NCBI GenBank assembly: GCA_038208115.1
Contig: JBBQZC010000003.1
Span: 2,984 to 66,983, forward strand
DNA: 64,000 nucleotides
Direction of reading: 5' to 3'
Source of the DNA: Candidatus Moraniibacteriota bacterium
GTDB taxonomy: Bacteria; Patescibacteriota; Minisyncoccia; Moranbacterales; GCA-2747515
Notes under the pieces: model-generated
What the model saw: the letters and a program-made list of their open reading frames with translations, nothing else
Databases searched by the model: none
What the model was told of the DNA's origin: nothing
Shown: piece after piece, positions 725-59,195 of the stretch
Layout of the letters: every line of letters starts with the position of its first letter
Position numbering within the stretch: the first letter of the stretch is position 1
Made by a program: the position numbers and the translations under genes

Positions 725-2647
725 ATGAATTGGACGATTTTTCCACAAAATTACAACAAGAAATTTATTATTTATAACACACTCTGTATGGAAAAAATAT
801 TCAAAAACTCTTCTCTTATTATCATGATTTTGATTATTGTTGTCATGTTTATTTTACTCTCAACAGGATCAAAAGATTCCGTTGAACAAATTTCTATCAC
901 ACAGCTTTCTCAAGAAATCAATGAAGGCAAAGTCAAGCAAATCACTGTAACAGCAGATGCTAAAATCACAATTGATCTAATAGATGGAAAAAAACAAGCC
1001 ACAAACAAGGAGGCTGACGCCAGTCTAACCGATACACTCCGAAATTTTGGTGTGGACGAAGGAAAACTTTCCTCAGTGCCAATTACGATTGAGACGAGAT
1101 CTGGCTTTGCTTTGTGGTCAGCTATTTTGATCCCATCAGTGCTTCCCATATTGATTATTGGGGTGCTTATATTTTATATGATGAAACAGGCAATGCGTGG
1201 CAATAATCAAGCCATGATGTTCGGCACATCACGTGCACGCATGATCGACCCAAAGGATAAAAAAAATCGTACAGGATTTAAAGATGTAGCTGGCAATAAA
1301 GAAGCTAAAGATGAACTTATTGAGATTGTTGATTTTCTCAAAGAACCTAAAAAATTTCAGAGTCTCGGTGCAAAAATTCCAAAAGGTGTCTTACTATTAG
1401 GAAGACCAGGCACTGGCAAAACTCTCCTTGCTCGTGCTGTAGCTGGTGAAGCTGGTGTACCATTTTTTTCCATCAGTGGATCAGAATTTGTAGAAATGTT
1501 TGTTGGTGTGGGTGCATCACGAGTACGCGATCTATTCAAGCAAGCCAAAAAACACTCCCCATCTATTGTATTTATTGACGAAATTGACGCAGTAGGTCGT
1601 CAGCGTGGTACAGGGCTCGGCGGAGGCCATGATGAACGAGAACAAACATTGAATCAGATATTGGTAGAAATGGATGGTTTTGATAACCAAACAAATGTCA
1701 TTGTCGTCGCCGCAACAAACAGACCAGATGTACTTGACCCTGCTCTATTACGCCCGGGTCGATTTGACCGACGCGTAACTGTTGATTTGCCCGATATTGA
1801 AGATCGAAAAGCCATCCTCGGGATACACGCAAAAGATAAAAAGATCTCTACCGATGTAGATCTCGAACGCATTGCGCAGAGAACTCCTGGATTTTCTGGA
1901 GCTGACCTGATGAATCTCATGAATGAAGGTGCTCTACTCGCTGGACGACGCAACAAAAAAGCTGTATATATGATCGACATCATAGACTCTATCGAAAAAG
2001 TATTATTAGGACCAGCTCATCGTAATAATCGCATGGATGAAAAAGAAAAAAGGATTATTGCCTATCATGAGGCTGGCCACGCAATCATTGGAGCAAGCTT
2101 GGAGAACACTGATCCTGTGCACAAAGTTTCAATAATTTCACGTGGAAATGCTGGTGGATACACATTAGCTGTACCAGATAAAGATAAAAGTCTGCACAGT
2201 CGTGCATATTTTCTCGATGAACTTTCAGTTTTTCTGGGAGGTTATGTAGCTGAAGAACTCATATTTGGAGATGTGACTACAGGACCTTCAAGTGACTTGA
2301 AGCGAGCAACAAAAATGGCGCGCAATATCGTAACCAAATATGGCATGAGTGAATTAGGTGTTCGCACATTTGGTAAAAATGAGGATATGGTATTTTTAGG
2401 ACGAGATGTTTCTGAAGAAAAAGAATATTCAGATAAAACTGCACAGGAAATTGATCATGTAGTATCAAAGCTTCTTGCTACTGCACAAAAACGAACGCAT
2501 GCAATATTAGTAGAAAAACGATCGATTCTGGATATAATTGCGCAAAGATTGCTCGTCGCAGAAACGATTGAAAAAGAGGAATTTGACGAAATCATGTCTG
2601 GCAAAGTAACTTTCACAGAAAAAGTCGTTGACGAAACTCAAAAATAA
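725..2647 (+). CDS. ftsH: ATP-dependent zinc metalloprotease FtsH
   Basis: Two TM segments, AAA+ Walker A GRPGTGKT, Walker [13 protein letters not shown], and the HEAGHA zinc motif. An alternative start at M22 (nt 788) fits a short FtsH N-terminus better. Confidence 0.95.
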
Positions 2648-8747: not shown

Positions 8748-8851
8748 AAATATGTATTATTGAAATTATTTTTTTATTATACCACATTTTACATTTGAAC
8801 TTATAATTAAAAAACAATAGGATATTGATCCTATTGTTTTAGATATTCGTA

Positions 8852-9010
8852 TCATGAATTCTCCTTTAGCCAGGATTTATCCTGACGATTGTATGTTTTT
8901 TTACCAGATCGATCTCCGTGTGCGCCTCCACGATGGCGGAGAGTCTGAATTACATCAAATTGGAGACGTGGCTTGATACGGTCCATCTTCATTATCACTA
9001 TTTTTTTCAT
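8852..9010 (-). CDS. small basic hypothetical protein (52 aa), not in the supplied ORF track
   Basis: Hand-translated as MKKIVIMKMDRIKPRLQFDVIQTLRHRGGAHGDRSGKKTYNRQDKSWLKENS, preceded by a strong SD (AAGGAGA, 5 nt before ATG). Confidence 0.3.
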   Translation of the reverse strand: MKKIVIMKMDRIKPRLQFDVIQTLRHRGGAHGDRSGKKTYNRQDKSWLKENS

Positions 9011-9335
9011 CCTAATCTCCTTATTTGGATTTTATTTAAAAACCATATCAAAAAATTATTGTAGAGTGATCGTTTTTTTAGTTTTTTAATTTCTGACTGT
9101 AATTGACTGTGTTTCTGATACATCTCACAGTGATATGGTCTCGAAATATACATAATTTTCATATATGCTAAATTAATTCAGATATCTTCTTAAAAATCCA
9201 CATACCGCATGACGATATGAGAACTTTATTGAAGAGGGAATTTTTTGTAAAAACGGCATTCCCACAACGCCTAGTGCATTTTTTGAGGACGCACACAACC
9301 TCTGTTTAACGTCCATAACAGACGATGGTGGTGGC

Positions 9336-9545
9336 CTACCCATTCTTTTCCAGCCACGATTCAGCTTTATCAATCTCCTCGTACTGTTCCTCCCGGAGAG
9401 CGTCAAGCTGATCATCAATGCTGCACCCGCAACATCGATCATCATATGAACCACAAATTGGACAAGTCTCAGCTTCGTCCGCATCGTGATAAAATTCCTC
9501 TTCGCGACAGTTGTCGCAATTGCCGAACAAATCTATTTTTTTCAT
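9336..9545 (-). CDS. small acidic zinc-ribbon protein (Cys-x2-Cys ... Cys-x2-Cys)
   Basis: 69 aa with CDNC...CPIC...CCGC motifs and a strong SD (AGGTGA) upstream of ATG. Confidence 0.55.
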   Translation of the reverse strand: MKKIDLFGNCDNCREEEFYHDADEAETCPICGSYDDRCCGCSIDDQLDALREEQYEEIDKAESWLEKNG

Positions 9546-9661
9546 ATCATCACCTCATGAAAAAAATTTATTCATTAGATTATCAGTGTTTTTACACAAT
9601 GCATGGCACACCTGTTGCCTTTTATGTCGGTAATCTTTTCTTGCGTCCCGACAGTCTTGTT

Positions 9662-9740
9662 TCATCAGCTTTTTTTACGTGGGCTTACTCCACAGTGTAC
9701 GTCTGTTAAACCTTTCGGAAAGCCAGACGGAGGATTTTTC
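9662..9740. repeat. copy 1 of about 80-bp repeat family A
   Basis: Identical over about 80 nt to the copies at 11370 and 12047. Internal hairpin CGTCTG...CAGACG; preceded by a hairpin TGTCGG...CCGACA. Confidence 0.85.
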
Positions 9741-9746
9741 TCCTCA

Positions 9747-9941
9747 TTATTGGTCGAGATCACATCGAGGACACCAGTCATCGTAAAAAATATTGAACAG
9801 ATGACCGCACTCTCGACAGATTTTATCGCCTTCATGGACATATGACAAGTGATCAATCCACATCTGCGGATCATTCCGCTTGGATTGTGCCAATTTTTGA
9901 CGATAACATCGCTCAATCGCCTCACACTTTTTATTTTTCAC
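9747..9941 (-). CDS. small Cys-rich (zinc-finger-like) hypothetical protein, GTG start
   Basis: 64 aa with CEAIERC...CRECGH...CPRC; SD AGAGGTGA upstream of GTG; stop lies 6 nt before repeat copy 1. Confidence 0.5.
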   Translation of the reverse strand: MKNKKCEAIERCYRQKLAQSKRNDPQMWIDHLSYVHEGDKICRECGHLFNIFYDDWCPRCDLDQ

Positions 9942-10327
9942 AGTTCACCTCTTTATTTTTATGATTTGATTTCCCTCTAAAATATTTCTTATGCCCTATT
10001 ATCTCATTTTAAAATGAATGTGATTCAATAAAAAATATTTTAGAGAGGCAGATAATTATATACGTATAATTATCTGCAAAAAAATGACAGTGGCGGCTCG
10101 TCAGGCCCTCCAGAACTTCCCTGGGCAATTATTCCTCAGATTATAGCGTCGTGAAGATGGACGGTTGGTTTATTGATTTACTTCCTCTTTTACCAACAAA
10201 TTAGGAAGGGTCATTAGTTATTTACTTCCATTTCCGAGTGGGAAGGGGACGCTTTTGCATCATGCCCAGGATGACTGTGGCCATTCTTTTTTGACTAGAG
10301 TTTGCCCTCTCTAGAGACTGTTTAACG

Positions 10328-10756
10328 TCAATCTGTGACGGTGAGAGTCTCCAAATATGCGAGACTCCCTCGAAGCTCCTCCGTTGAGACACCTCCTGCG
10401 GACTCGTAGAGTGTGATGAGGTTTTTGAACAAATCAATCCTCATGCGAATATATTGCTGTAGCTCTTCCGGCAGATAACTTGCTACGAACGCAAGCTCTG
10501 CCTTAGTAGCCGCTACACAACGCCCTTTTACATTCGTGAAATGTGTATACTCAACATATTCATGAATGACCTGAGGCGCGCGCCATCTCATCGGAACATC
10601 CTCAGAAATAAACAGCATACCTTCAAAAAATCCCAGGAAACCTGGTAATGAAGGTTGTAAATCGCGAGATACGACGCTGTACTCGATCTTCTGACCCAAG
10701 TACAGTATCTCTTCCACAGAAATGGTTTTTCTCTCGATGACTTCTCTGATATTCAT
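10328..10756 (-). CDS. hypothetical protein (142 aa) in the GC-rich island
   Basis: ORF with a strong SD (GGGAGGATGTAATG) and GC-rich codon usage unlike the flanking genome; no confident domain. Confidence 0.5.
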   Translation of the reverse strand: MNIREVIERKTISVEEILYLGQKIEYSVVSRDLQPSLPGFLGFFEGMLFISEDVPMRWRAPQVIHEYVEYTHFTNVKGRCVAATKAELAFVASYLPEELQQYIRMRIDLFKNLITLYESAGGVSTEELRGSLAYLETLTVTD

Positions 10757-10847
10757 TACATCCTCCCAGTTGATTTTGAATAAAGAACATAATTTTCCTC
10801 TAACAACTCACAACATATATTTATGAGATCTTAGAGAAAAGTGAGGC

Positions 10848-11015
10848 ACTACGGTTCAGCGCTCTCACTTACCACTTCTTTTCCCTGTGGCTCGGGATTG
10901 CGTTTACTGAGGGCATCGCGGAAAGCGGCGCCAACAGAAACGGTAATTGGCTTACTCGTCCGGCGGGTACGCTGGCGGAGCTCCCTAACCGGAATATGTC
11001 CAATGATTTTGGCCA
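10848..11015 (-). CDS. small basic protein (55 aa), possibly DNA-binding or antitoxin-like; not in the ORF track
   Basis: Hand-translated as MAKIIGHIPVRELRQRTRRTSKPITVSVGAAFRDALSKRNPEPQGKEVVSESAEP, with SD GGAGGTGAGTTATGG. Confidence 0.35.
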
Positions 11016-11081
11016 TAACTCACCTCCTGTGAGATTTTTTTCACACGCACGATATGTAACGTGTGTACTTCATGACCATTA

Positions 11082-11165
11082 TCATCAGCTATTTTTACGT
11101 GGGCTTACTCCACTTTAATGTCGGTTATCTAATCAAAGCCCGACAGTTGAATTTACCCCTCCTTG
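11082..11165. repeat. diverged copy (B) of repeat family A
   Basis: Shares CATCAGCT(A/T)TTTTTACGTGGGCTTACTCCAC with the other copies. The rest differs in sequence but keeps a hairpin GTCGG...CCGAC. Confidence 0.7.
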
Positions 11166-11305
11166 CGAAGGAATTCTTGGAAATCTATCTCACCCCCTTC
11201 GATAGACACCAATTCTTCATCCTTCTTTCTCTCCTCTTCAATTACATCAGAAGGAGATGCAAAAGGTTCATCTACTGCTGGTAGGTCCCCGTCAAAAACT
11301 GGCAT
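11153..11305 (-). CDS. small acidic hypothetical protein (50 aa); not in the ORF track
   Basis: Hand-translated as MPVFDGDLPAVDEPFASPSDVIEEERKKDEELVSIEGGEIDFQEFLRKEG; lies downstream of repeat copy 3 on the minus strand. Confidence 0.3.
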   Translation of the reverse strand: MPVFDGDLPAVDEPFASPSDVIEEERKKDEELVSIEGGEIDFQEFLRKEG

Positions 11306-11369
11306 ATGTTACCCCATTTGTGAGATTACGCGCGGACACCCTATGCATCACGCGCTATTCCTAAACGTT

Positions 11370-11449
11370 TCATCAGCTTTTTTTACGTGGGCTTACTCCA
11401 CAGTGTACGTCTGTTAAACCTTTCGGAAAGCCAGACGGAGGATTTTTCC
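11370..11449. repeat. copy 3 of repeat family A, followed by a conserved-stem hairpin and a perfect palindrome (to about 11517)
   Basis: Identical to copies 1 and 4. Then CCCTCTAG...CTAGAGAGGG and GGGATTATTTTTCGCTGAAAAAATCCCC. Confidence 0.85.
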
Positions 11450-11661
11450 CTCTAGCATTTCACAAATTGATTATGAAATTCTAGAGAGGGGGATTATTTT
11501 TCGCTGAAAAAATCCCCAACATATCAGCATATGACCGCTCTGCCAGGCGCTTCGGTGCTTCCCCGAAGAATTACATGTCAGTTTATTGCTCATGACGTGG
11601 AGCTGCATATTTTTTTGATTCACCAGGTAAATATGCAAAGACTGGAGTGATCTGTACCGGT

Positions 11662-11949
11662 TCATGCCGGTTTAGGCTTGGTGCCATTTCGGTCTCGACC
11701 AAACTTGGTCAGAAAGGGCTTAAACGTCAAAGCCACATCCTGATTACGCTTGATGACCTCAGCCTCGGAATTTTCTATTCCATAGAACGGAATATATTTC
11801 CCCTCAGCTTTGGCCTGACGAATGAGTTCGCCACGACACCTCAGGCACACTGGAGTGATTACCCACAATCCCTTCTCCTTACGAAGGGCGAGAGAGTGTT
11901 TCACTACCTGGCCATTGCCCTTGTGAACACAACAGTAATCTTTTCCCAT
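11662..11949 (-). CDS. small Cys-rich hypothetical protein (95 aa)
   Basis: CCVH...CLRC pattern; strong SD GGAGGTGACTTATGG, the same SD context as the gene at 13130. Confidence 0.5.
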   Translation of the reverse strand: MGKDYCCVHKGNGQVVKHSLALRKEKGLWVITPVCLRCRGELIRQAKAEGKYIPFYGIENSEAEVIKRNQDVALTFKPFLTKFGRDRNGTKPKPA

Positions 11950-12046
11950 AAGTCACCTCCGTGAATGGGTTTGTGGCTTGGATGGTTGAGTTCGACACGA
12001 TGCCGAATTTACGTCGGTCATCCATGAGTACCCCGACGGAAATGTT

Positions 12047-12126
12047 TCATCAGCTTTTTTTACGTGGGCTTACTCCACAGTGTACGTCTGTTAAACCTTT
12101 CGGAAAGCCAGACGGAGGATTTTTCC
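12047..12126. repeat. copy 4 of repeat family A, followed by a conserved-stem hairpin and a perfect palindrome (to about 12228)
   Basis: Identical 80-mer. Preceded by hairpin CGTCGG...CCGACG; followed by CCCTCTAAAATA...TGTTTTAGAGAGAGG and GGAAATTACTTTCGTTAAAAGTAATTTCC. Confidence 0.85.
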
Positions 12127-12842
12127 CTCTAAAATATTTCTTATTGCATGCAATTTCATTGGTATCTGACATTGCGTTAAAAAATGTTTTAGAGAGAGGA
12201 AATTACTTTCGTTAAAAGTAATTTCCTGTAATCCGTGCACGTGCATTGGGCTGATAGATGCGATCAGTTATCCTTTGCTTAAACAGAGCTCATTTTGAGA
12301 TTGTTTCTACGAGGTGCACCCCGCGATCCTTCCCATTGTGGGATTGCGAGTGGAATCTCGCATTTATCTAAGGCCGGATAAGCCATAGCTATTTAGTACA
12401 GGTTATGACGAGAGCTCTATCATAATTCGTCCTGTACTTTACAACGGAGGGCATCGACAATTTGTCTCCCCCGTTTCCCTTTTTCGACTACACACCCGGC
12501 CAGGACGTGATCGAAGTGAGATTCCACCTCACGATACTAGCATCATAGGGAAATGACACCGCTCTCTCTAATACTTCACAAAAGTTTTTGAACAGTGAGG
12601 CACAAAAAAACTTCGCAAGAATAATTTGTGTCTAATGACTATTTCTAGCCATGTCTCAACTTTTGCGAAGTTTTAGAGAGAGGAAAGCTTATGGGATTGT
12701 TTATAAATTCCCACTTAAACGTTGGCTTTCCGCAACGAGATTTGAATGAACTTCCGCGTGATGATTTTTCCCTATGCAATATTCATCACTGATACCTGTT
12801 GTTTATCGACGGTCAGAGCAGGCTCCGTCTAGGAAAATTCAA

Positions 12843-13130
12843 CTATTTCTTTGGTTTTTTCCGAAATGGTGCGGTGACCATATGGCAAACTGCCCATATG
12901 CACACACCAATTCCGATTAAACCTCCGATACTAGCTGAATTCCGGGTTGTCTCGCCCACAATAATTGATAACAGCGTTGCCACTGTCATCAAAATCATGT
13001 CAAAGACGTGTCCCACGATTTGCCGAAGCAAATCAGGGGCGACCCAGGCCAGCAACATGCTGACTCCGATGGTGGTGGCAATTTTGTTTCGCCATATCCA
13101 CCGTATTACGTTGAGAATATAGCGATCCAT
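12843..13130 (-). CDS. small membrane protein (95 aa, 2-3 TM segments)
   Basis: Hydrophobic ORF with strong SD AAGGAGGTGACTTATG. Confidence 0.5.
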   Translation of the reverse strand: MDRYILNVIRWIWRNKIATTIGVSMLLAWVAPDLLRQIVGHVFDMILMTVATLLSIIVGETTRNSASIGGLIGIGVCIWAVCHMVTAPFRKKPKK

Positions 13131-13159
13131 AAGTCACCTCCTTATTTTGATTTTTGGAT

Positions 13160-13310
13160 AATATTTCCCTCATTGATTCCTAATAAATTATATAAGTGTC
13201 ATCCTAAACTCGTTTCAGGATTTAAATTGCTGATTTTGTTAATTGACAGCAAGATTCTGAACCAATTTCAGAATGCCATGAAATTATTACGAAAAAATGA
13301 GGGAAATATT
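13160..13310. mobile_element. MITE-like element bounded by 14-15 bp perfect terminal inverted repeats
   Basis: AATATTTCCCTCATT at 13160-13174 is the reverse complement of AATGAGGGAAATATT at 13296-13310. Internal hairpins include TTCTGAACCAATTTCAGAA. No ORF. Confidence 0.35.
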
Positions 13311-14087
13311 AAATTGTTAAAGAAAATGAGAGATTACCGTCTGGTTCATAACATTACTTTACTTTTCTGTAATAGCATGTGACCTACTTATTGTGACAAA
13401 ATGGTCAATTATATATTATTAAAAACCTATAGTTCACTTATATTGTCACATCTATTACGACCATCCTGCCGATCAGACACCTCTTTAACTCGTATCATCC
13501 CGCACAGTTCAGCCATATGTCCAAGTAAAATAACTATCTTTATTGTGTTACAGATAGCTGTCTTCTCGACTACTTCACTGTAACAACACAGTATAGCATG
13601 CAGAATTTATTTTGTCAAGCGTTACTGACAATTCTATTGTAATATATTATTATGTAGCTTATTTGAATGCTTTTTTTGTACTATGTGTCGTTATTATCTA
13701 TGGACACTTTGCCATTTTTCTCTTCAAGAGTCACTTTCACATGCAAATTGAAGAAATGTTTGCCATCAATCATATTGTTAGTGAGCAATTAACATTATGT
13801 TTAGACATATTGACAATAATATCGAATCGTGCTATACTAAATTATTAGTCGAGGCGGTACAATGTTTTCCGCTTACGTACTATTGTTAAAATCTATCAGT
13901 AAAACAACCAAATTGGCAACTTCTTTATAAGGTTGTCGGAAAGAGAAACGTCATTCGATTTGAATGATAAAGTATTTTAACCGGCAAACTCAATAAGGAG
14001 ATATGCCATGGGAAATTGATCAGAAAGTACCGACCGAAAGGTGACGACAGCAGTATCGTCGTCACTGAGTAGGAGGATTTCTGAAAA

Positions 14088-14198
14088 ATGACCCAAAAAA
14101 AGGAGGTAATGATGGACGGGGTATAGTTTTTTTTTGAAAATTCAAAATGTAACGTGTGAATTAATTTCACAAAAGGAGGTAATGATGGACGGCGTATG
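14088..14198 (+). other. tandem SD-plus-mini-ORF units, each encoding the peptide MMDGV
   Basis: AGGAGGTAATGATGGACGG(G/C)GTAT(AG/GA) occurs twice, at ATG 14109 and ATG 14181; it is followed by a terminator-like hairpin. Confidence 0.3.
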
Positions 14199-14210
14199 AA
14201 TTAATTAAAA

Positions 14211-14258
14211 ACCCAAACAGTGCTCCCTCGCATATAGCTATGCTTGGGAGTCTTTTTT
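14211..14258 (+). terminator. rho-independent terminator-like hairpin with a T-run
   Basis: CCCAAAC...GCATATAGCTATGC...TTGGGAG followed by TCTTTTTTT. Confidence 0.4.
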
Positions 14259-16086: not shown

Positions 16087-18201
16087 TTATTTTTCAGGTA
16101 TTACACTCTCATATCGTCCACGGAACTCGCTGTCAAAATAGCTTTTCTTGATGCCTAAATCTTGATCACACTTTGGACAAAAATCGTATTCTCCTTCGAG
16201 ATAGCCATGCTTTGGGCATATCGAGAATGTCGGAGTAATCGTAATGTATGGGAGTCGATAATTTGTCAAAATCTTTTTAATCAATTGTGCACACACTTCA
16301 CCAGAGCTGATCCTTTCACTCATATATCCATGGAATACCGTACCTCCCGTGTATTTTTTTTGTAATTCGTCTTGGAGATCCAATGCTTCAAAGATATCAT
16401 CAGTGTATCCTACTGGAAGTTGTGAGGAGTTGGTGTAATATGGCGCGTCTTCTGTACCAGCTTGGATAATATCTGCATATTGTTTTTTGTCTTCTTTTGC
16501 AAAACGATATGTAGTTCCCTCTCCCGGTGTTGCCTCCAGATTATAGAGATTGCCCGTTTCCTCCTGAAATTCTGACATTTTCTCGCGAATTCTATCCAGC
16601 GTTTCTTTTGCAAATTCTTGACCAAAGCTAGTCGTGATATTTTCATTGTCTTCTGTGAAATTTCGTATTGCTTCATTCATGCCATTGATGCCGATTGTGG
16701 AGAAATGATTATTGAGTTTTCCGAGATATCTCTTTGTATATGGAAATAATCCCCGATCCATCCATTTTTCGATTACCTCCCTCTTGATTTCGAGCGATGT
16801 CTTTGCTGCTTCCATGAGGTATATTACGCGAGCAATGAATTTTTCCCTTTCTCCAGCGCAGGTTTTACCGATACGCGCCATATTGATTGTTACCACACCA
16901 ATCGATCCCGTCATCTCCGCTGATCCAAATAAACCACCACCTCTCTTACGCAATTCTTTGAGATCTAATTGCAAACGACAACACATTGAGCGCACGTCAC
17001 TCGGATTGAGATCTGAGTTAATGAAATTCTGAAAGTATGGTGTTCCATATTTTGCGGTCATTTCGAACAGTGGCAATACTTTTGGATCATTCCAGTCAAA
17101 ATCCTTTGTAATGTTATATGTCGGGATTGGAAATGTAAATGTACGCCCCTTTGAATCACCTGCCATCATCACGTCGATAAAACACTTATTGATGAGATCC
17201 ATTTCTTTTTGCAATTCACCAAATGTGTGTGTAAATGGCTTGCCTCCTAGAATTAGTGTCTTTTTTTTGAGATCATCCGGACATACCCAGTCAAGTGTGA
17301 TATTGGTAAATGGTGTTTGTGTGCCCCATCTCGATGGAATGTTGAGATTGAATACAAATGATTGGATGTTTTGATATACAAAATTATAGAGCACTTCTAC
17401 ATAGTATTTTTCTTCCTTTTCGTGAGAAGGAAATGTCATACCATGTTTTTTGATCATTTCTCGTAATTCCATCTCCTTTTTCTTCACAAATGGCGCTAAA
17501 TATGTATCAAAGCTCGAGAATGCTTGTGCGCCTGCCCACTCATTTTGTAATGTTCCGAGAAAATTGATCATTTGTGCAACTGCACTAGAGAGATGTTTAG
17601 GCGGTTTTGATTCTACCTTGTTTGAAACGCCGTTAAATCCCTCTTCGAGTAGTGTCCGGAGACTCCATCCTGCACAATATCCAGAGAACATATCGAGATC
17701 ATGTATGTGTATATCAGCATTTCTATGCGCTTCACCGATCGCTTTTGGATAAATATGTGATAGCCAGTAGTTTGCAGTTACTTTTCCTGCTGTATTCAGT
17801 ATCATGCCCCCGAGCGAATATCCCTGATTGGAATTCGCATTTACACGCCAATCTAGCTGATCAAGGTATTCACTCATGGTTTTTTCTACATCCACCATCA
17901 CATTTTTGTCAGATCGTGCTTCTGTCCTCTTCTGTCTATATAAAATATAGTCTTTTGCAATCCGTGGATAGTTGAATTTTATGAGAGCCTCCTCGACCAT
18001 ATCCTGTACCTGTTCTACTGACGGAATTTCTTCTCCATAGTTTTCTGTCAGTCGTTTTTCAGCAAATTGTGCAATTTTATGTGCATTGAATTTTTTTTCT
18101 GGCTCAAAAGCCTGTGCTGCTTTTGTAATTGCCTTTTCGATCTTCAATATGTCAAAATCTACAATAGTACCGTTTCTTTTTTTTATTTTGTGTATTGCCA
18201 T
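16087..18201 (-). CDS. nrdD: anaerobic ribonucleoside-triphosphate reductase (class III) large subunit, lacking its glycyl-radical tail
   Basis: N-terminal ATP-cone, class III RNR core, C-terminal Zn-ribbon-like CPKHGYLEGEYDFCPKC; it ends before the glycine-radical motif. Confidence 0.9.
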   Translation of the reverse strand: MAIHKIKKRNGTIVDFDILKIEKAITKAAQAFEPEKKFNAHKIAQFAEKRLTENYGEEIPSVEQVQDMVEEALIKFNYPRIAKDYILYRQKRTEARSDKNVMVDVEKTMSEYLDQLDWRVNANSNQGYSLGGMILNTAGKVTANYWLSHIYPKAIGEAHRNADIHIHDLDMFSGYCAGWSLRTLLEEGFNGVSNKVESKPPKHLSSAVAQMINFLGTLQNEWAGAQAFSSFDTYLAPFVKKKEMELREMIKKHGMTFPSHEKEEKYYVEVLYNFVYQNIQSFVFNLNIPSRWGTQTPFTNITLDWVCPDDLKKKTLILGGKPFTHTFGELQKEMDLINKCFIDVMMAGDSKGRTFTFPIPTYNITKDFDWNDPKVLPLFEMTAKYGTPYFQNFINSDLNPSDVRSMCCRLQLDLKELRKRGGGLFGSAEMTGSIGVVTINMARIGKTCAGEREKFIARVIYLMEAAKTSLEIKREVIEKWMDRGLFPYTKRYLGKLNNHFSTIGINGMNEAIRNFTEDNENITTSFGQEFAKETLDRIREKMSEFQEETGNLYNLEATPGEGTTYRFAKEDKKQYADIIQAGTEDAPYYTNSSQLPVGYTDDIFEALDLQDELQKKYTGGTVFHGYMSERISSGEVCAQLIKKILTNYRLPYITITPTFSICPKHGYLEGEYDFCPKCDQDLGIKKSYFDSEFRGRYESVIPEK

Positions 18202-18546
18202 ATCATGTCATTTTAGTAAAAGAAAAAAGCAAGAAATTTTTTCCTTACCCCTTCTAAATATGATTATACACTTATTTTTTTTTATTGCAAGGCCTCTTTA
18301 TCCACAGAATTTGAATACATACTATATGTAGTGGTTTTTGTCAGTACCCACCACTAGTAGTTTTTTTCCTTTTTTTCTCACTTTGCTGTTATCGCTTATT
18401 TTTTTGATTGAATTTTCCGTTAGTTTATATCCGTATTAACAGTTCTTTGGTTATATTTATTCTTTTATTTTTTTCGTTTTTATTATTTTTCAATGGTTGT
18501 CGTTGTTATTATTCACGTGTCATTAAATTATGCATCATTAAAGAAA

Positions 18547-19281
18547 TGTTCCACGTGGAACAATCAACTTTTTTTTAATTTTGTGATCTAAAAGTGTATT
18601 TTATCTATTATCATAATGCTCTGTTCCACGTGGAACATTTTTATGCATTAAATCTTCAATTTCTACCATCTATTTTCTCATGTATTAGTCAAAGTATAAT
18701 AAATATGAGGATTTCTGTAAAATTTAATAATATTTTATATTAATTACATTTTTTAGTGGACACCTATGTTCCACGTGGAACACGTGTACTATATAACGCT
18801 GTCATTATTCGCCAATGATAAATATACTATACAAAAATGAGATTTCATTAAACTATGAATCAGAGATTTCGTTCGAAATTGAACGTAATATACATTTTTT
18901 GATCTAATTGTTCCACGTGGAACAATTAGATGTATATACTATACAACAAATGCAATCCGATTATAATATACAATGTTCCACGTGGAACAATTTGGGTAGT
19001 TTTTTACTTGTATCATTGATAAATTTGGTAAAACAACGAAATTCACGAGTAAATATCGCATTAATATCGCGAACTATTCTCAAAGCACTTTAGTATATAG
19101 TAACCTCGTAATGAAGAAATGCATATCAATAATGTTCCACGTGGAACATTATCCCATTGTATTATCAAAAAGCCTCTATAATATAACAGTTTTAACTAAA
19201 TCTTGCGCAAGTAATAAATTCTCAAAGATGAACAAAGCAAAGATGTCTGTGAGTGCCAATTATATTGTTCCACGTGGAACA
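18547..19281. promoter_or_regulatory. cluster of 7 perfect parS-like palindromes (TGTTCCACGTGGAACA)
   Basis: Sites at 18547-18562, 18622-18637, 18767-18782, 18909-18924, 18974-18989, 19133-19148 and 19266-19281. They match the parS consensus tGTTNCACGTGAAACa. Confidence 0.8.
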
Positions 19282-19500
19282 GGAAATTGATACGATAAAT
19301 AATTATAATAATAATCCATCTATGATATACTATATGAGGAAGCATCCGCTACATGAAAATCCCCAATACTTGACATAATTACTATTTTATTGTGTTGTAT
19401 CTTTTTTACTAGACATATCAATAATAATATAGTATAGTAAAAAATGCTCTTCAAATGACATATTTATATAAATGACATAATATGTATACACATTCACACT

Positions 19501-19573
19501 GTTCTCGTAGTTTAATGGATAAAACAAGTCACTCCTAAGGATTAGATGGAAGTTCGATTCTTCCCGAGGACAC
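19501..19573 (+). tRNA. tRNA-Arg (anticodon CCT)
   Basis: Hand fold: acceptor GTTCTCG/CGAGGAC with one G-U pair, D-loop AATGGATA, T-arm GGAAG-TTCGATT-CTTCC, anticodon loop CTCCTAA. Confidence 0.6.
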
Positions 19574-19588
19574 AATATCTCGTTTATA

Positions 19589-19948
19589 ATGCAATTAAGT
19601 AATAAATCCACACAACATATGAGTGATCGCATACGCAAAGTCAATGCATTGATTCACAAAGAAATGTCACGCATCATGACAGAAAATCTCAGTCTAAAAC
19701 CAGGATTATTTCTCACAATTTCAAAGATTGACACAACAGACGATCTACGATACACTCGTATATTCGTTCGCGTGTTTCCAGGGAAAGAAAGCGAGTATGG
19801 TATGAAAACACTTGAACACGAACGATTCACTCTTCAAAAGCAACTGCATAAAAAATTACAGATGAAAGTTTGTCCTAAAATTTCATTTGCTAACGACACG
19901 ACAGGTGATGAGGTAGACGAGATTGAACGACTACTCAAAGAGTCTTAG
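19589..19948 (+). CDS. rbfA: ribosome-binding factor A
   Basis: RbfA-like sequence (RIRKVNALIHKEMSRIM...DLRYTRIFVRVFPG); the true start is possibly the second Met. Confidence 0.75.
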   Translation: MQLSNKSTQHMSDRIRKVNALIHKEMSRIMTENLSLKPGLFLTISKIDTTDDLRYTRIFVRVFPGKESEYGMKTLEHERFTLQKQLHKKLQMKVCPKISFANDTTGDEVDEIERLLKES

Positions 19949-46283: not shown

Positions 46284-47249
46284 TTAGACAATAAACTTCT
46301 GAAGATGTTTCACAAAAGCCTTAAATCTGCCCGGATAATCAACCTCATACTTATAAACCTGTCCTTCATATGGTATTTCAATTTCTTTTGCATGAAGAAA
46401 AAATGTGTGTGTTTCATACTCCTTGGCAAAATTTAACCTCAATCGTTTTTCCGTCTTGGTATAGTAGCGCTGATCACCAACGAGAGGATGCCCGATATGA
46501 GCCATGTGTACGCGAATTTGATGTGTGCGACCGGTTTGCGGTCGTGCTTCAACTAGAGAAATGGTGTTTTCACCATTTATATCATATTCTTCCAATTGCG
46601 TATATTCTGTCTGCGCTTCCTTGGAATCACCCGTATATTTCCCAAAAGCGATTTTTTGTTTTGTGTACGACGTCGCACGAGCAATTGGTGCGTCTATTAC
46701 GCCGGTTTTTTCTTCAAATGCGCCAAAAACAAGCGTGTGATAGGTTTTTTTGACTTTTCTATCTTGAAAAGCTTTCTTAAGTATATCAAAACCTTTTTGA
46801 TTTTTAGCAACCACCATAAGACCTGTTGTATCCTTATCCAACCGATGTACAATACCTGGACGCTCTTCATCATCTCCCACACCCTCTATCTCAGGATACA
46901 TTGCCAAAAGCACATTGACGAGTGTTTTATCTCTTTCTCTGTGGCTCGGATGGACCTGTAACCCTCTTTGCTTATTGATTACGATAAAATCAGGTTGATG
47001 ATCAATAATTTCTAGCGATATATTGCGATTAGGGAGAATTTTCTTGGATTTATCTACAAATTCCCCCATAAATACATGCTCACCTCCTTTTAATGTATAG
47101 CTGGGTTTGGCAGTTTTGCCATTAATTTCTACAACACCTGACCTGATCATACGTATTATGTCTCCCCGCGTTTTATCTTCTCCAAGAGATTCTACGAGAT
47201 ATTTATCTATTCTTTTTCCTTTTTCTTCGTCTGCGATGATAAATTCCAT
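46284..47249 (-). CDS. rluD: RluA/RluD-family 23S rRNA pseudouridine synthase with an N-terminal S4 domain
   Basis: Catalytic motif HRLDKDTTGLMVVAKN; S4-like N-terminus; start taken at the internal Met (MEFIIADEE). Confidence 0.8.
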   Translation of the reverse strand: MEFIIADEEKGKRIDKYLVESLGEDKTRGDIIRMIRSGVVEINGKTAKPSYTLKGGEHVFMGEFVDKSKKILPNRNISLEIIDHQPDFIVINKQRGLQVHPSHRERDKTLVNVLLAMYPEIEGVGDDEERPGIVHRLDKDTTGLMVVAKNQKGFDILKKAFQDRKVKKTYHTLVFGAFEEKTGVIDAPIARATSYTKQKIAFGKYTGDSKEAQTEYTQLEEYDINGENTISLVEARPQTGRTHQIRVHMAHIGHPLVGDQRYYTKTEKRLRLNFAKEYETHTFFLHAKEIEIPYEGQVYKYEVDYPGRFKAFVKHLQKFIV

Positions 47250-47439
47250 ATGGGTAACAATATAATATTTAAGGTAAATTCTATCATACACCATTTTAAC
47301 AAATAACTCAACTATTCACTATAAAATAATTATAACGACCACAATTTATAATATAAATAAATGTGAATAATTATTCACCTATTATGCACAATTATCTATT
47401 TCGTCTTTAAATCTGTGTATAACTTGTGTAAAGCGTGTA

Positions 47440-47670
47440 TAATTACTTGTGGATATTACTGTATAATTTCGTGGATAAAAAATCTCTTTTGTGGATAAGT
47501 ATCTCACTTTATACCTCAAAAAAGTTATCCACATTCACACGCACATATACACATAGTTACCCACAGTCACTATTTTCATCTCTATAAAAAGGTTTTCAGG
47601 AATATCCACTTATACATATACTAATAGTAATAATTAATTATATAAATATAATATAATATAAATAGACTAC
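47440..47670. promoter_or_regulatory. DnaA-box cluster plus AT-rich unwinding-element-like tract (candidate oriC or DnaA-regulated region)
   Basis: Perfect boxes TGTGGATAA (47490-47498) and TTATCCACA (47525-47533). Near-matches TGTGGATAT (47449), CGTGGATAA (47470), TTACCCACA (47557). Then TAATTAATTATATAAATATAATATAATATAAATAG. Confidence 0.55.
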
Positions 47671-47812
47671 AAATTCATCTACATTCAGATATCAAAGCAT
47701 CAAATAAATACTTTCAAAACAATTTGTAAATAGTAAATTCATAAATAGAATTATTTTTTGTCTTTCTTACAAATTATGATATAATGCATTTGTTAAATTT
47801 GTATACAAAAAA

Positions 47813-51417: not shown

Positions 51418-51879
51418 ATGCAGATTGTACCACAATATATTGATGTTGAAGATAAAATAGCAGGACCGCTCACGTGGAAACATATTGGTTGGATGTTTGC
51501 TGGTGGAGCAGTTTTATTGTTTGCATTCACTTTATTAGATACTACAACTTTTATTATTGCAGCAGTGCCGATTACTATATTTACGGGAGCGCTTATTTTT
51601 TATCGACCGAGTGGGGTGCCATTGGTACAATTCATCGGATTTGGATTTACATATCTTTTTCGTCCAAAAGTGTATACGTGGCAACGTGAAGACACGTTAT
51701 ACACACAGAAAAAAAAGAACAAAGTAATGCATATTGAGACTACGAGTGAAAAAAAACACTTAGGCGAGAATGATATGCATGCAATTGCACAAATGCTTGA
51801 TACACGTGGAACGGAGCGCAGTGATCGTCTTCAACAGTTGATCAGAGAAAGTAAAAGAGAATCACAACATAAAAAATAA
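51418..51879 (+). CDS. small membrane protein, VirB3/PrgI/TcpE-like
   Basis: Two-TM topology (WMFAGGAVLLFAFTLL, FIIAAVPITIFTGALIFY) immediately upstream of VirB4, as in Gram-positive-type T4SS. Confidence 0.4.
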   Translation: MQIVPQYIDVEDKIAGPLTWKHIGWMFAGGAVLLFAFTLLDTTTFIIAAVPITIFTGALIFYRPSGVPLVQFIGFGFTYLFRPKVYTWQREDTLYTQKKKNKVMHIETTSEKKHLGENDMHAIAQMLDTRGTERSDRLQQLIRESKRESQHKK

Positions 51880-51891
51880 TTTGATATTGAT

Positions 51892-52575
51892 ATGGACTTA
51901 TTAGGATCAACTTCACAAAATAGTGGATTAAGCACACTGAAGTATGTGGATATTAAAACAATTAAAGATGGAGTAGTTGTGCTTAAAAACGGTTCTTTAA
52001 GAGCTGTTTTACTTGTGTCATCGATTAATTTTGATCTTAAATCATCTGATGAACAAATAGCTATTGTTGGCGCATATCAAAACTTCCTTAATTCACTAGA
52101 TTTTCCTATTCAAATATTGGTTAGTTCACGTAAATTGAATATTAGTGCATATCTAGATATGCTTAAAGAGAAGTCGAGAGAACAGCGCAATGAATTGTTG
52201 AAAATTCAAATTATTGAATATAGGGAATTTATTCAAAAACTCACAGAAGTGACAAATATTATGAGTAAATATTTTTATCTTGTCGTACCATTTGCACCAG
52301 TGGAAAATGAATCAGAAGGAATTCTCGGTAAAATCTCACATGTATTTAATCCTGAGGAAAATATTACAGAACATGAGGAGTTATTTGAAACGTACAAAAA
52401 TCAACTATGGCAACGAGTAGATCATGTTGCGGCAGCTCTGGGAGGAACAGGATTACATTTCACAGCGTTGAATACGGAAGAGCTCATTGAAATGTATTAT
52501 GGTATGTATAATCCATCAGAATATTCGCAGACGACAATAAAGAATGTTATAGAATCAGATGTGGAACAAATGTAA
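51892..52575 (+). CDS. VirB4/TraC-family ATPase, N-terminal domain (separate ORF)
   Basis: VirB4-like N-terminus (DIKTIKDGVVVLKNGSLRAVLLVS); ends with TAA 24 nt before the ATPase-domain ORF. Confidence 0.55.
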   Translation: MDLLGSTSQNSGLSTLKYVDIKTIKDGVVVLKNGSLRAVLLVSSINFDLKSSDEQIAIVGAYQNFLNSLDFPIQILVSSRKLNISAYLDMLKEKSREQRNELLKIQIIEYREFIQKLTEVTNIMSKYFYLVVPFAPVENESEGILGKISHVFNPEENITEHEELFETYKNQLWQRVDHVAAALGGTGLHFTALNTEELIEMYYGMYNPSEYSQTTIKNVIESDVEQM

Positions 52576-52599
52576 AAATAATTATTTGTAGGGATTGAT

Positions 52600-54411
52600 A
52601 TGTTATTCAACAAAAAAGCAAATACACAACAAAATAATGAGACTGTAGAGAATGATAAATTTTATCAAGAAGGTGTTGCTACGGTTCGAGGACTTATTGC
52701 TCCAAGCGCATTACAAATTCAAGCAGATCATTTACAAATTGGCGATGTGATGGCAACAACAGTTTTTGTGATGGCATACCCTCGCTTTTTAAGTGATAGT
52801 TGGTTCGCACCAATCATTAATATTGATTTTCCGATGGATATTTCAATGTTTATTCATCCTGAAGATTCACGCGATGTGCTTAAAACACTGAGAAAAAGTG
52901 CAGCGCATGTGCATTCACAGATTGATATTGAGTCGCGTAGTGGAAAGGTAACTGATCCAATGTTGGAAACGGCTATAGAAAACATTGAGACTCTTCGTGT
53001 GAGTTTGCAACAAGGAACAGAGAGATTTTTCCGTTTTGGCTTGTATATTACACTTTATGCTGATACAAAAGCAGTGTTGCAAAAAAGAAAAAGTGAGATT
53101 GAGGCAATTTTAGAAGCCCAGCTAATTTATTGTAAACCTGCTATATTACGAATGGAACATGGTTTTGCGTCGACAATTCCACTTGGGAATGATCGACTGA
53201 ACGTAGGAACAAACCTCAATACAGCACCACTCTCGACAACCTTTCCTTTTGTGTCATCCAGCCTGTCATCCAACGAAGGAATTTTATATGGAATTAATCG
53301 TCATAACAATAGTCTGATATTATTTGATCGGTTCAATATGGAAAATGCTAATATGGTGGTTTTTGCAAAATCAGGTGGCGGAAAAAGCTATTTTGTAAAA
53401 TTGGAAATATTACGATCCCTAATGATTGGCGTTAATGTAATAGTGATTGATCCAGAAAGTGAATATAAACATCTCTGTCAAACTGTCGGCGGTACATATA
53501 TTCAAATATCACTTGGATCAAATGCACACATCAATCCATTTGAACTACCAGCAATACCTAAGGACGAAAAGCAAGTTGATGTATTTAGAAACACAATAGC
53601 GAGCTTGATCGGATTGATGCATATCATGCTGGGTAGTGTAACAGCGGAAGAAGATACGGTGCTCGAACGTGCCATTCGTGAAGCCTATGCAGTGCGCGAT
53701 ATCACAGAGGATAGTCATTTTGGAGGTATACCACATTCAGGATATCCGACAATGGCAGATCTCTATGAGGTACTGCGATCAATGGATGGTGGTGATTCAT
53801 TAGGTAAGAGACTATCGAAATATACAGAGGGTATTTTTTCTGGATTTCTTAATAATCCAACGAATATTGAGGTAAATAACCAGATGATTGTATTTAATAT
53901 TCGAGATTTGGAAGAGGAATTGCGACCAATTGCGATGTATATGGTTTTGCAGTTTATCTGGAATGAGATGCGTACAAATATGACACGCAGAATTGTAGCT
54001 GTGGATGAGGCGTGGGTCATGATGCAAAATGATGATGCGGCAGCCTTTTTATTTGGTATTGCAAAAAGATGTCGTAAATATTATACTGGCCTCACAACGA
54101 TCACACAGGACGTAAGTGATTTTATGACAAGTCGCTATGGTAGACCAATTGTGACCAATTCATCTCTACAACTCCTTCTCCGTCAATCACCAGCCTCTGT
54201 GGATGTGATTGCGGAAACATTTTACCTGACAGATCATGAGAGATTTCTTCTGCTTGAAAGTAATGTGGGAGAGGGTATTTTATTTGCAGGACCTAAGCAT
54301 GCAGCTATCAAAATCATATCTTCATACGCAGAAGATCAAATCATTACTTCTGATCCGAGACAGCTTGCTGAAATAGAGAAGGCAAAGGAAGAAATAGATA
54401 ATGAAAAATAA
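52600..54411 (+). CDS. VirB4/TrbE/CagE-family type IV secretion ATPase, C-terminal NTPase domain
   Basis: Walker A VVFAKSGGGKSYF and Walker B IVAVDEAW, the DEAW motif characteristic of VirB4. Confidence 0.75.
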   Translation: MLFNKKANTQQNNETVENDKFYQEGVATVRGLIAPSALQIQADHLQIGDVMATTVFVMAYPRFLSDSWFAPIINIDFPMDISMFIHPEDSRDVLKTLRKSAAHVHSQIDIESRSGKVTDPMLETAIENIETLRVSLQQGTERFFRFGLYITLYADTKAVLQKRKSEIEAILEAQLIYCKPAILRMEHGFASTIPLGNDRLNVGTNLNTAPLSTTFPFVSSSLSSNEGILYGINRHNNSLILFDRFNMENANMVVFAKSGGGKSYFVKLEILRSLMIGVNVIVIDPESEYKHLCQTVGGTYIQISLGSNAHINPFELPAIPKDEKQVDVFRNTIASLIGLMHIMLGSVTAEEDTVLERAIREAYAVRDITEDSHFGGIPHSGYPTMADLYEVLRSMDGGDSLGKRLSKYTEGIFSGFLNNPTNIEVNNQMIVFNIRDLEEELRPIAMYMVLQFIWNEMRTNMTRRIVAVDEAWVMMQNDDAAAFLFGIAKRCRKYYTGLTTITQDVSDFMTSRYGRPIVTNSSLQLLLRQSPASVDVIAETFYLTDHERFLLLESNVGEGILFAGPKHAAIKIISSYAEDQIITSDPRQLAEIEKAKEEIDNEK

Positions 54412-54687
54412 TATAACAAAAGAGGTTTGTAAAAACCTCTTTTTTAGTGTGTGATATTGCATGTGAAGTTGTATGTGTTTTGTAATAATAACAATCATAT
54501 ATGAAAAATGATAAAAATATTTGGGAATTAACTCCTAATCTCGTTATTACAAATTTTGTAATTGATTCATTGTCAAAAAGACATTCACAAGAAATACATT
54601 TAAGTAGTGTTTATTCACTGTATATCGAAATGTATTTATTAAAAAATGAAACAATCATAAAGAAACCTCGCAATTGTTAGTAGTTAC

Positions 54688-55470
54688 GTGTATAATATAG
54701 AAAGAAATAATGAAAATATGAGCACATCAAGAGCATCAACAAATCCAGAAAACATTGCCATCTATGCGGAGAGAGCGCGCAATCTTCAGCGTGCTCGTCA
54801 GAAGAAAAATATCACGCAAGAGACGCAGTCACAGAAATATACAGAACAATTGAGTAAACAAATTCAAAGAAGCAGATATTTTCAAAATAGTGATACTCAG
54901 AATTTTGCAGATAAACCAGGTGGCGAAAGTAGTGATAGTCAGAAAAAAAATAACATACGATTAATTCAAAAAGATTTACATGGCGAAATACAGGATGATG
55001 AATTACATCAAATAACAGATGATGTGTCAGATGTTTTTACAAGTTCAAAAATAATGCTTCCAGTAAAAATAGCTCAACTAGCTGTGCATTCTCGCGCTGC
55101 ATTGAAAGATTATACTAGCAAATGGTGGATTGTTGCGTTTGCATTTGCTATTTTTAAAGACCTCGCACTCGATCCAACAATCCATCAAATACCAGCATTA
55201 GGATGGTTTGTTGCATGCTGTTTTACGATTGGATTTATCATTTTTTTATTTGGAGGTGGATTTTTTAGGAAGTTAGGCAAAAAGATGATTGCAAAAATCA
55301 TTTTTTCGATTATTATTGATATGATCCCATTTGTAAACATACTATTTCCTGGAACAACAATAGCTGTATTAGTACGATGGGATGGGTCAAAAAAAGATGC
55401 AAAAAAAGCAGAACAAAATGTGAAAAGAATTAGAGAAAAGTATGCAGAATATGATACAATGAATGAATAA
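54688..55470 (+). CDS. membrane protein (260 aa; hydrophilic N-terminus, 3 TM segments)
   Basis: ORF in the T4SS-like cluster. Confidence 0.45.
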   Translation: MYNIERNNENMSTSRASTNPENIAIYAERARNLQRARQKKNITQETQSQKYTEQLSKQIQRSRYFQNSDTQNFADKPGGESSDSQKKNNIRLIQKDLHGEIQDDELHQITDDVSDVFTSSKIMLPVKIAQLAVHSRAALKDYTSKWWIVAFAFAIFKDLALDPTIHQIPALGWFVACCFTIGFIIFLFGGGFFRKLGKKMIAKIIFSIIIDMIPFVNILFPGTTIAVLVRWDGSKKDAKKAEQNVKRIREKYAEYDTMNE

Positions 55471-55508
55471 GATGTGATATAATAATACATATAAAAAAAA
55501 TAGTAAAT

Positions 55509-56150
55509 ATGAATCAAGAAATTATAAAACAATTAACACATTTTTGCTTTGCGCTTGCTTGTGTTGCTTTATTTTTTTTCTTCCCTGTGTCAGAATATCG
55601 ATTTGAAGTTTTAGTTAGCGTCGTAACTTTTTTACTGGTGATGCCAGTAATTTATACAAAGGTCGTTTTGCATAAAGATTTGAGGGAGATGGGTTTTTGG
55701 TCTTTTCGGATAGAAAAAAAAGAAATTTTTATGTTGACGGCCTCAGTAATAATTGGTGGTTTATTGGGCTTTGTGATGATTGCGATGAAGTGGGGTGTGG
55801 CTTCATATGTTGGGATGTTACCTGGCGCTGTTTTATACAACTTTGGAGGATTTGTCGTCTATGAGTTAGTTTTTGTTTCAGCAATCCTCTTTCTTTTTAC
55901 TGTGATTGTGTGGGGATTTGTGTTTAATTGCACATGGCATGATCATCGTATTGCGTTCATATCTGGAAGTGTCTTATTTATTGTTCTATTATATAGCTTT
56001 TATCAAAATATATTTATCATCATTCCCTTGCTCAGTCCTGTAGTTATATTATACAAAAAACGATTTACTTATAACATTATCTATCTTTTTTTAGCATTCT
56101 TTCTAATAAGTCTTATTATAGATACGATGATCGTGCGGTCATTATCATAA
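55509..56150 (+). CDS. polytopic membrane protein (213 aa)
   Basis: About 6 predicted TM segments. Confidence 0.45.
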   Translation: MNQEIIKQLTHFCFALACVALFFFFPVSEYRFEVLVSVVTFLLVMPVIYTKVVLHKDLREMGFWSFRIEKKEIFMLTASVIIGGLLGFVMIAMKWGVASYVGMLPGAVLYNFGGFVVYELVFVSAILFLFTVIVWGFVFNCTWHDHRIAFISGSVLFIVLLYSFYQNIFIIIPLLSPVVILYKKRFTYNIIYLFLAFFLISLIIDTMIVRSLS

Positions 56151-56199
56151 TATAATTTAGACAATCGAGATGGAATTTTTAATAATAAAAACTGTGGCC

Positions 56200-59154: not shown

Positions 59155-59195
59155 AGTATGATATACTAAGTGGAGAGAATAATAAAAATAAAGTC

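Follow-up and report, generated by a model that had tools for sequence, protein, structure and literature searches.

Introduction

Short perfect palindromes resembling the parS sites of ParB proteins had been recognised by a first-pass annotation in a gene-free gap of a Candidatus Moranbacteria (Patescibacteria) genome. Are these palindromes a centromere, and if so, does it belong to a chromosome or to a plasmid, or do they serve as operators, as an origin or as something else? The question has some weight, as no published description of chromosome segregation in Patescibacteria was found, and literature searches on Patescibacteria, CPR, Saccharibacteria and Parcubacteria turned up nothing relevant on parS or ParB. 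The locus was followed up computationally in the stretch of 64,000 nucleotides that contains it (hereafter the window), in related genomes and in a wider sample of bacterial and viral sequences. Judged by their sequence, the seven palindromes are very probably chromosomal parS sites, i.e., putative ParB loading sites that make up the centromere of the chromosome.

The repeat and its sequence type

The repeat, TGTTCCACGTGGAACA, is a perfect palindrome of 16 bp that occurs in seven exact copies, as had been claimed, all of them within 735 bp (18547-19281; Table 1), and there is no further exact copy in the rest of the 64-kb window. With up to three mismatches allowed, a single additional match was found in the window (at 51798, with three mismatches); the chance expectation at this threshold is 0.24 matches per window, and none of 100 shuffles reached eight. 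The start-to-start distances are 75, 145, 142, 65, 159 and 133 bp. The spacing is thus irregular, as first described, but the gaps between the sites measure 49-143 bp and not 45-130 bp, and a hand calculation on the spacings in the window and in the relatives gave no evident helical phasing. An independent Logan assembly of the same sample (run SRR19962012; L001) covers the whole array at 100% identity over 9,654 bp, and since it reproduces the array, an assembly artefact can be dismissed.

A match to the parS consensus at 15 of 16 positions had been reported initially, which is right for the B. subtilis-type consensus, yet against the Pseudomonas sites the match is complete. TGTTCCACGTGGAACA is identical at 16 of 16 positions to parS2 and parS3 of P. 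aeruginosa and to the parS of P. putida, and it differs by one base from that of Myxococcus xanthus (validated sequences from PMC4368675 and PMC7022226). All seven copies fit the pattern tGTTNCACGTGAAACa, a feature of chromosomal ParABS centromeres. Because of its identity to the validated P. aeruginosa parS2 and parS3, the repeat can be regarded as a canonical chromosomal ParB site.

Two further ideas of the first-pass annotation, a Noc-like nucleation platform and a plasmid-type centromere, had to be given up. Noc binding sites (NBS) are ATTTCCCGGGAAAT-like and lie scattered over the chromosome away from the terminus. They resemble the array in being 16-bp palindromes; a ParB paralogue binds them, and two bases in each half-site set them apart from parS (PMC7333895). 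In the window the half-site, TGTTCCAC, is parS-like, all sites are gathered in a single cluster, and the host is not a Firmicute (NCBI lists the NrdD homologues under Candidatus Moranbacteria/Moraniibacteriota, Parcubacteria or Patescibacteria group), Noc being confined to Firmicutes. The centromeres of type Ia plasmids, such as sopC of F, parS of P1 and the OB sites of RK2, resemble the array in that sites for ParB-family proteins are concentrated in short non-coding DNA. They have plasmid-specific sequences, however, and adjoin their own parAB operon, whereas the array in the window consists of the universal chromosomal sequence, is borne on a chromosome and has no adjacent par operon. That the replicon is a chromosome follows from its housekeeping genes (ftsH, hisS, ldh, nrdDG, rbfA, an nrnA-like gene, udg, pnp, lspA, ksgA, uvrD and rplS), nine tRNAs and a DnaA-box origin of its own (see below); the window also carries a xerC/D-type recombinase gene.

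That no parAB lies in the window had been stated from the start and was borne out: a Pfam search of the approximately 55 window ORFs of at least 100 aa gave no ParA or ParB domain, and an HMM built from 42 ParB proteins of other loci matched none of the window ORFs of at least 80 aa. At none of the related loci did either gene turn up in the 10 kb around nrdD, and the ParB box I/II motifs together with the HMM detected no ParB in the window or in about 1 Mb of related Moranbacteria loci.

Table 1. Features of the parS array, its flanks and the predicted origin (positions in the window)
Feature	Position	Strand	Remarks
nrdD, anaerobic ribonucleotide reductase, left flank	16087-18201	-	Pfam NRDD and ATP-cone
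AT-rich gene-free spacer with the array, 1,299 bp, GC 27.6%	18202-19500	.	same slot in related Moranbacteria, spacers unalignable
nrdD promoter-like site and conserved upstream block, outside the centromere	18263-18365	-	promoter match; block conserved in L123 and L260
putative parS site 1, TGTTCCACGTGGAACA, perfect	18547-18562	.	identical to P. aeruginosa parS2/parS3
putative parS site 2, perfect	18622-18637	.	exact match
putative parS site 3, perfect	18767-18782	.	exact match
putative parS site 4, perfect; palindrome extended to 30 bp (18902-18931)	18909-18924	.	exact match
putative parS site 5, perfect	18974-18989	.	exact match
putative parS site 6, perfect	19133-19148	.	exact match
putative parS site 7, perfect	19266-19281	.	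exact match
tRNA-Arg(CCT), right flank, followed by rbfA (19589-19948)	19501-19573	+	
predicted oriC, intergenic, 518 bp, GC 22.8%	47295-47812	.	eight DnaA boxes and GC3-skew sign change

The spacer and its flanking genes

The placement of the array in a gene-free region between nrdD and tRNA-Arg/rbfA was correct, and the gap (18202-19500) contains no credible gene. Small ORFs within the array (e.g., 18908-19093 and 19111-19290) were considered and rejected as genes, because the spacers in which they lie are not conserved even in the closest relative (L260, see below). A search of Rfam with the region from 8.7 to 19.6 kb (E<=1) found no RNA family besides the tRNA-Arg and one match at chance level.

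Further to the left lies a block of 5.4 kb (8750-14237) that has no ORF longer than 142 aa, a raised GC content (0.41-0.44) and no match in Rfam. It is partly conserved in L260 (12450-19150, 72-87% nucleotide identity) and absent from the relatives L123, L262 and L263. The block holds a conserved element of about 85-107 nt, with full copies at 9655-9761, 11363-11469 and 12040-12146 and a partial one at 11082-11113, which recurs in L260 and is followed by no consistent ORF. When folded, its minus strand forms three hairpins, with one compensatory pair change, so the element could be a repeated RNA of no known family, or a small mobile element inside decayed DNA.

Upstream of nrdD, a promoter match of the form TTGCAA-16-TATAAT was found, with the -35 TTGCAA at 18290-18285 and the -10 TATAAT at 18268-18263. 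Directly upstream of the -35 lies a DnaA-box-like sequence, TTATCCACA (18298-18306), the counterpart of which in the relatives is ATATCCACA. It is contained in a conserved block, which extends over 18295-18365 in the window, about 7560-7640 in L260 and about 9800-9870 in L123. Near 18318-18335 the sequence CCACTACATATAGTAT, judged by eye, is presumably an NrdR-box-like palindrome, agreeing at 13 of 16 positions with the NrdR-box consensus. Control of nrd genes by DnaA is known in E. coli. The conserved block points to a regulation of nrdD by DnaA, by NrdR or by both, and the lone DnaA box may be a regulatory DnaA site or, equally, part of another operator.

Since the array sits between two diverging promoter-like sites, the palindromes might be operators of a DNA-binding protein other than ParB that controls the diverging nrdD and tRNA-Arg/rbfA promoters, and a -10-like motif, TATACTATA, does recur here: six exact copies are present in the window, four of them in the array region (on either strand). 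We consider this explanation improbable. The 7-12 sites spread over 0.7 kb far exceed what promoters need, most of them are 300-1000 bp away from either start, nrdD has a conserved regulatory block of its own beside its promoter, apart from the sites, and the exact match to the universal parS would then have to be a coincidence. A regulatory side-effect of a parS array is plausible, because the ParB of P. aeruginosa represses the promoters beside parS3 and parS4 (PMC7022226).

Motifs like TATACTATA (up to one mismatch) are over-represented in the window as a whole, with 53 matches against 23.7 expected. They are mostly intergenic and upstream of genes, at least six being located inside the parS spacer (18318-19441), and are probably the extended -10 element of the host promoters.

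Conservation and turnover in related genomes

The array was compared with six further assemblies, representing five or six genomes, in which NrdD is 83-91% identical to that of the window. All relatives whose NrdD is at least 83% identical carry parS-like sites, 5-12 in each, and always in the slot bounded by nrdD and tRNA-Arg/rbfA. L260/L261 (NrdD 91%) have seven sites, all perfect, at distances of 86, 117, 106, 80, 73 and 133 bp; L263, a contig of 1.18 Mb (86%), has five, of which four are perfect; L262, a contig of 1.55 Mb (85%), has eight, five of them perfect; L122 (84%) has at least five, its array being cut by the end of the contig; and L123 and L185 (83%) have 12 each, spaced by about 60 bp, only one to three of which are perfect. 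In relatives with an NrdD identity of 77% or less no parS was found within 10 kb of nrdD, so the position of the array is specific to the clade.

Within the slot, the sites and the DNA between them have behaved very differently. Between the window and its closest relative, L260, the spacers cannot be aligned at all. What is conserved is the tRNA-Arg, the sequence block in front of nrdD and the sites, each of the 14 being perfect. Between L123 and L185, two closely related strains, 4.7% of the parS positions differ as against 13.1% of the remaining intergenic positions. The persistence of the sites among unalignable spacers and the lower divergence within them argue that selection acts on the 16-mers and not on the spacers.

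Where sites have degenerated, every deviation in the 14-bp core is a C-to-T transition on either of the two strands, at half-site position 5, 6 or 8 and mostly in the central CpG. This can be seen in L123 (9016-9708) and L185 (491-1191), where most of the 12 sites deviate, with CACATG, CATGTG and TCTAC as core variants and a few of the outermost bases changed as well. In some relatives most sites have their central CACGTG altered by a single transition or by two, which may weaken the binding of ParB. Two parS sites are reverse complements of each other between L123 and L185, and these two differ by only 0.1% in nrdD but by 13% in the intergenic spacers, a contrast that hints at recombination, or at very fast turnover, within the array.

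Tight parS arrays in other genomes and in viral contigs

Chromosomal parS sites had been described in the first-pass annotation as normally dispersed over kilobases. How dense they can be was followed by scanning a single genome from each species for pairs of parS sites at a distance of 40-70 bp, with loci of 8 kb, which is a sample and not a census. Among the matches listed there are at least 120 tight parS loci from many phyla, and their maximum number of sites per kb is two in 64 loci, three in 40, four in nine, five in five, six in one and seven in one. A ParB motif (box I/II) is encoded within the 8-kb locus in about 45 of the at least 120 listed, which makes tight pairs or triplets beside parB an ordinary arrangement; the statement on dispersal was too strong, as such pairs and triplets are common across phyla. 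Seven or more sites per kb are rare among the matches listed, and the sole locus with seven, L115, is again from a chromosome of the Patescibacteria/CPR, that of a Ca. Paceibacterota (see below).

The same scan, applied to viral contigs, yielded 57 from IMG/VR (L202-L258) with tight arrays of chromosomal-type parS, three to eight sites each, including one (L245, 6137-6460) with eight sites at a period of 38 bp. Neither the box I/II motifs nor the ParB HMM detected a canonical ParB in the part of these 57 loci examined. The contigs may be phages or phage-plasmids that borrow the ParABS system of the host, or they may be misclassified chromosomal fragments.

These contigs bring up a further explanation of the array in the window, namely that it is the relic or capture of a mobile element (phage or plasmid) beside the tRNA-Arg, with parS sites of the host type used for hitch-hiking on the host ParABS. 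The viral arrays have the same parS type without a canonical ParB in the part examined, and the array in the window abuts a tRNA gene, a common target of integration. Such an ancestry is nevertheless unlikely: neither the 1.3-kb gap nor the DNA next to it has an integrase, a mobile-element gene or a repeat boundary, all members of the clade examined have the slot filled, with its sites under selection, and the linkage to oriC has been kept despite rearrangements (in L123, see below). Even with such a start, the array would now act as chromosomal parS.

Position relative to the predicted origin

The origin of replication is predicted at 47.3-47.8 kb of the window, because a switch of the GC skew at third codon positions (GC3 skew) from negative to positive coincides there with a cluster of DnaA boxes. 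Read on the plus strand, the GC3 skew is -0.08 to -0.17 to the left of 47.3 kb and +0.23 and +0.24 to the right of 47.8 kb, in each case in genes of both strands. Eight DnaA boxes (up to one mismatch) are located within about 200 bp (47362-47565) and are followed by an AT-rich stretch. The neighbours are an rluD-like gene (46284-47294, minus strand) and a gene for a 663-aa protein with no assigned family; dnaA is not adjacent. Gene orientation confounds the plain GC skew, which is ambiguous, with a broad minimum at 20-41 kb. The predicted origin is followed directly on its right by a type IV secretion-like cluster (51418-60437) with a PrgI-family protein, a VirB4/TraG-type ATPase, a 994-aa protein with no assigned family and a T4SS pilin.

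The array is found about 28 kb to the left of this predicted oriC. L123 has a DnaA-box cluster homologous to that of the window (968-1833), about 8 kb away from its own parS array. The clade's origin-proximal region is heavily rearranged: some 20 kb between array and oriC in the window (22.8-41.7 kb; with pnp, a comM-like gene, ksgA, a ubiA-like gene, uvrD, a hemerythrin gene, a gene for a xerC/D-type recombinase and one for a LysM-CHAP hydrolase) are absent between these two in L123, the sole relative that shows both, in which the array is still near oriC.

The array is thus near the origin and is itself no origin. The first-pass annotation had reported a DnaA box at about 18299 and had proposed GC skew and origin position as a check. 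The box exists, at 18298, but the hint of an origin did not hold, as it is a single box by the nrdD promoter and the skew switches at 47.3-47.8 kb and not at the array. An origin at the array, possibly of the iteron type, with palindromes that bind an initiator, would fit an AT-rich, gene-free gap in which gene orientation diverges, with one perfect DnaA box (18298) and a cumulative AT-skew minimum at 18809. It is highly improbable, given that only this one DnaA box (up to one mismatch) is present in the 1.3 kb of 18202-19500 as compared with eight in 200 bp at 47.4 kb, that, whichever strand the genes are on, the GC3 skew keeps its sign across 18-19.5 kb, that the box belongs to the conserved block of the nrdD promoter, and that iterons are direct repeats and not perfect palindromes.

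It is scarcely credible that the palindromes are structural hairpins (terminators or REP-like), or that they are the repeats of an array akin to CRISPR or TIGR. Terminator-like scores were obtained for three of the seven sites, but a T-run is present at only three and the 6-bp stem is too weak (-4.3 kcal/mol) for the hairpin reading to stand. In L122, L123 and L185 the sites do recur regularly, about every 60 bp, and are separated by unique spacers, and TIGR arrays occur in CPR bacteria with 36-nt units and box C/D motifs (PMC12045711). The repeat of 16-20 bp is, however, shorter than these units and than CRISPR repeats (at least 23 nt), the sites of the window and of L260 follow each other at uneven distances (65-159 bp), and Pfam identified no cas, tas or Nop-domain gene in the window.

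A proposed role and its implications

The parS reading, which had been the core of the first-pass annotation, is therefore carried by three lines of evidence: the identity of the 16-mer to validated parS, the selective maintenance of the sites in relatives while the spacers turned over, and the proximity to the predicted oriC. What the sites do, i.e., ParB binding, clamp loading and a part in segregation, we infer from what is known of ParABS systems elsewhere (PMC7333895, PMC10786196). Each 16-mer would be recognised by a ParB dimer via its helix-turn-helix domain, and the dimer would then bind CTP, close as a clamp and slide onto the neighbouring DNA. Seven independent loading sites within 735 bp would give a high local rate of loading and a single compact partition complex near oriC. 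Its movement would fall to ParA, should the genome encode one, and the complex would load SMC, leading to the separation of the newly replicated origin regions. The gap between the diverging units, with nrdD on the left and tRNA-Arg/rbfA on the right, might keep the loading sites outside transcribed DNA. Most likely, then, the array is an unusually compact yet otherwise ordinary bacterial centromere that works by the standard ParABS mechanism.

A broader proposition is possible but distinctly tentative: that in Moranbacteria, and perhaps in Patescibacteria widely, the centromere is a compact and fast-evolving array, unlinked to parAB, with its 5-12 parS sites set in a dedicated stretch of about 1.2 kb that is free of genes. 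Sites would be lost continually through C-to-T transitions, mostly in the central CpG, and would undergo replacement or homogenisation, against a complete turnover of the spacers. If true, such a fast-turnover array would be comparable to a "regional" centromere in miniature and could be used as a natural experiment on parS clustering, and phage-like contigs that have the array but no ParB gene may exploit the same host machinery.

With the array and the predicted oriC, a canonical ParB-type centromere and a DnaA-box origin would be assigned to the chromosome of a lineage of Patescibacteria that is ultra-small and uncultivated. Why parS sites multiply and stay close to each other is an open question (PMC7333895; for clustering see also PMC7022226), on which an array towards the dense extreme of known parS arrangements, whose sites are retained through a complete turnover of the spacers, has a bearing. 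The practical gain is modest: closing and orienting such genomes, and estimating growth rate from read depth, could be anchored on the array and the predicted oriC.

Comparison with known centromeres

The 16-mer is the same as in the parS1-4 sites of P. aeruginosa and P. putida, which also are several and origin-proximal, the intergenic ones lying beside promoters. In Pseudomonas, however, four sites extend over several kb, are partly intragenic and are near parAB and oriC, while the window has seven in 735 bp of gene-free DNA with no parAB nearby. Chromosomal centromeres with many sites are known from Myxococcus xanthus (22), Streptomyces coelicolor and Listeria innocua (20-23), and also from Corynebacterium glutamicum and Caulobacter crescentus, and the array is like them in having many parS near the origin, in a copy number that varies between relatives. 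The clusters of those species extend over roughly 5-200 kb, with genes in between, whereas the sites in the window reach about 10 per kb in non-coding DNA.

Arrays of the same consensus and comparable density were found in a Clostridiales (L097, six sites) and in Terracidiphilus (L109, five sites), both of which, unlike the window, have a ParB gene in the same 8-kb locus. In L115, the Ca. Paceibacterota chromosome (OZ241963.1, ~417.5 kb), seven to eight copies of TGTTTCACGTGAAACA are packed into about 430 bp (1473-1910) in tandemly duplicated units and are followed by tRNA genes; two DnaA-like boxes are located just downstream of the array (2034 and 2111). This array shares with that of the window the consensus, a comparable density and a host among the Patescibacteria, and differs in being composed of tandem TGTTTCACGTGAAACA units, whereas the spacers in the window are unique.
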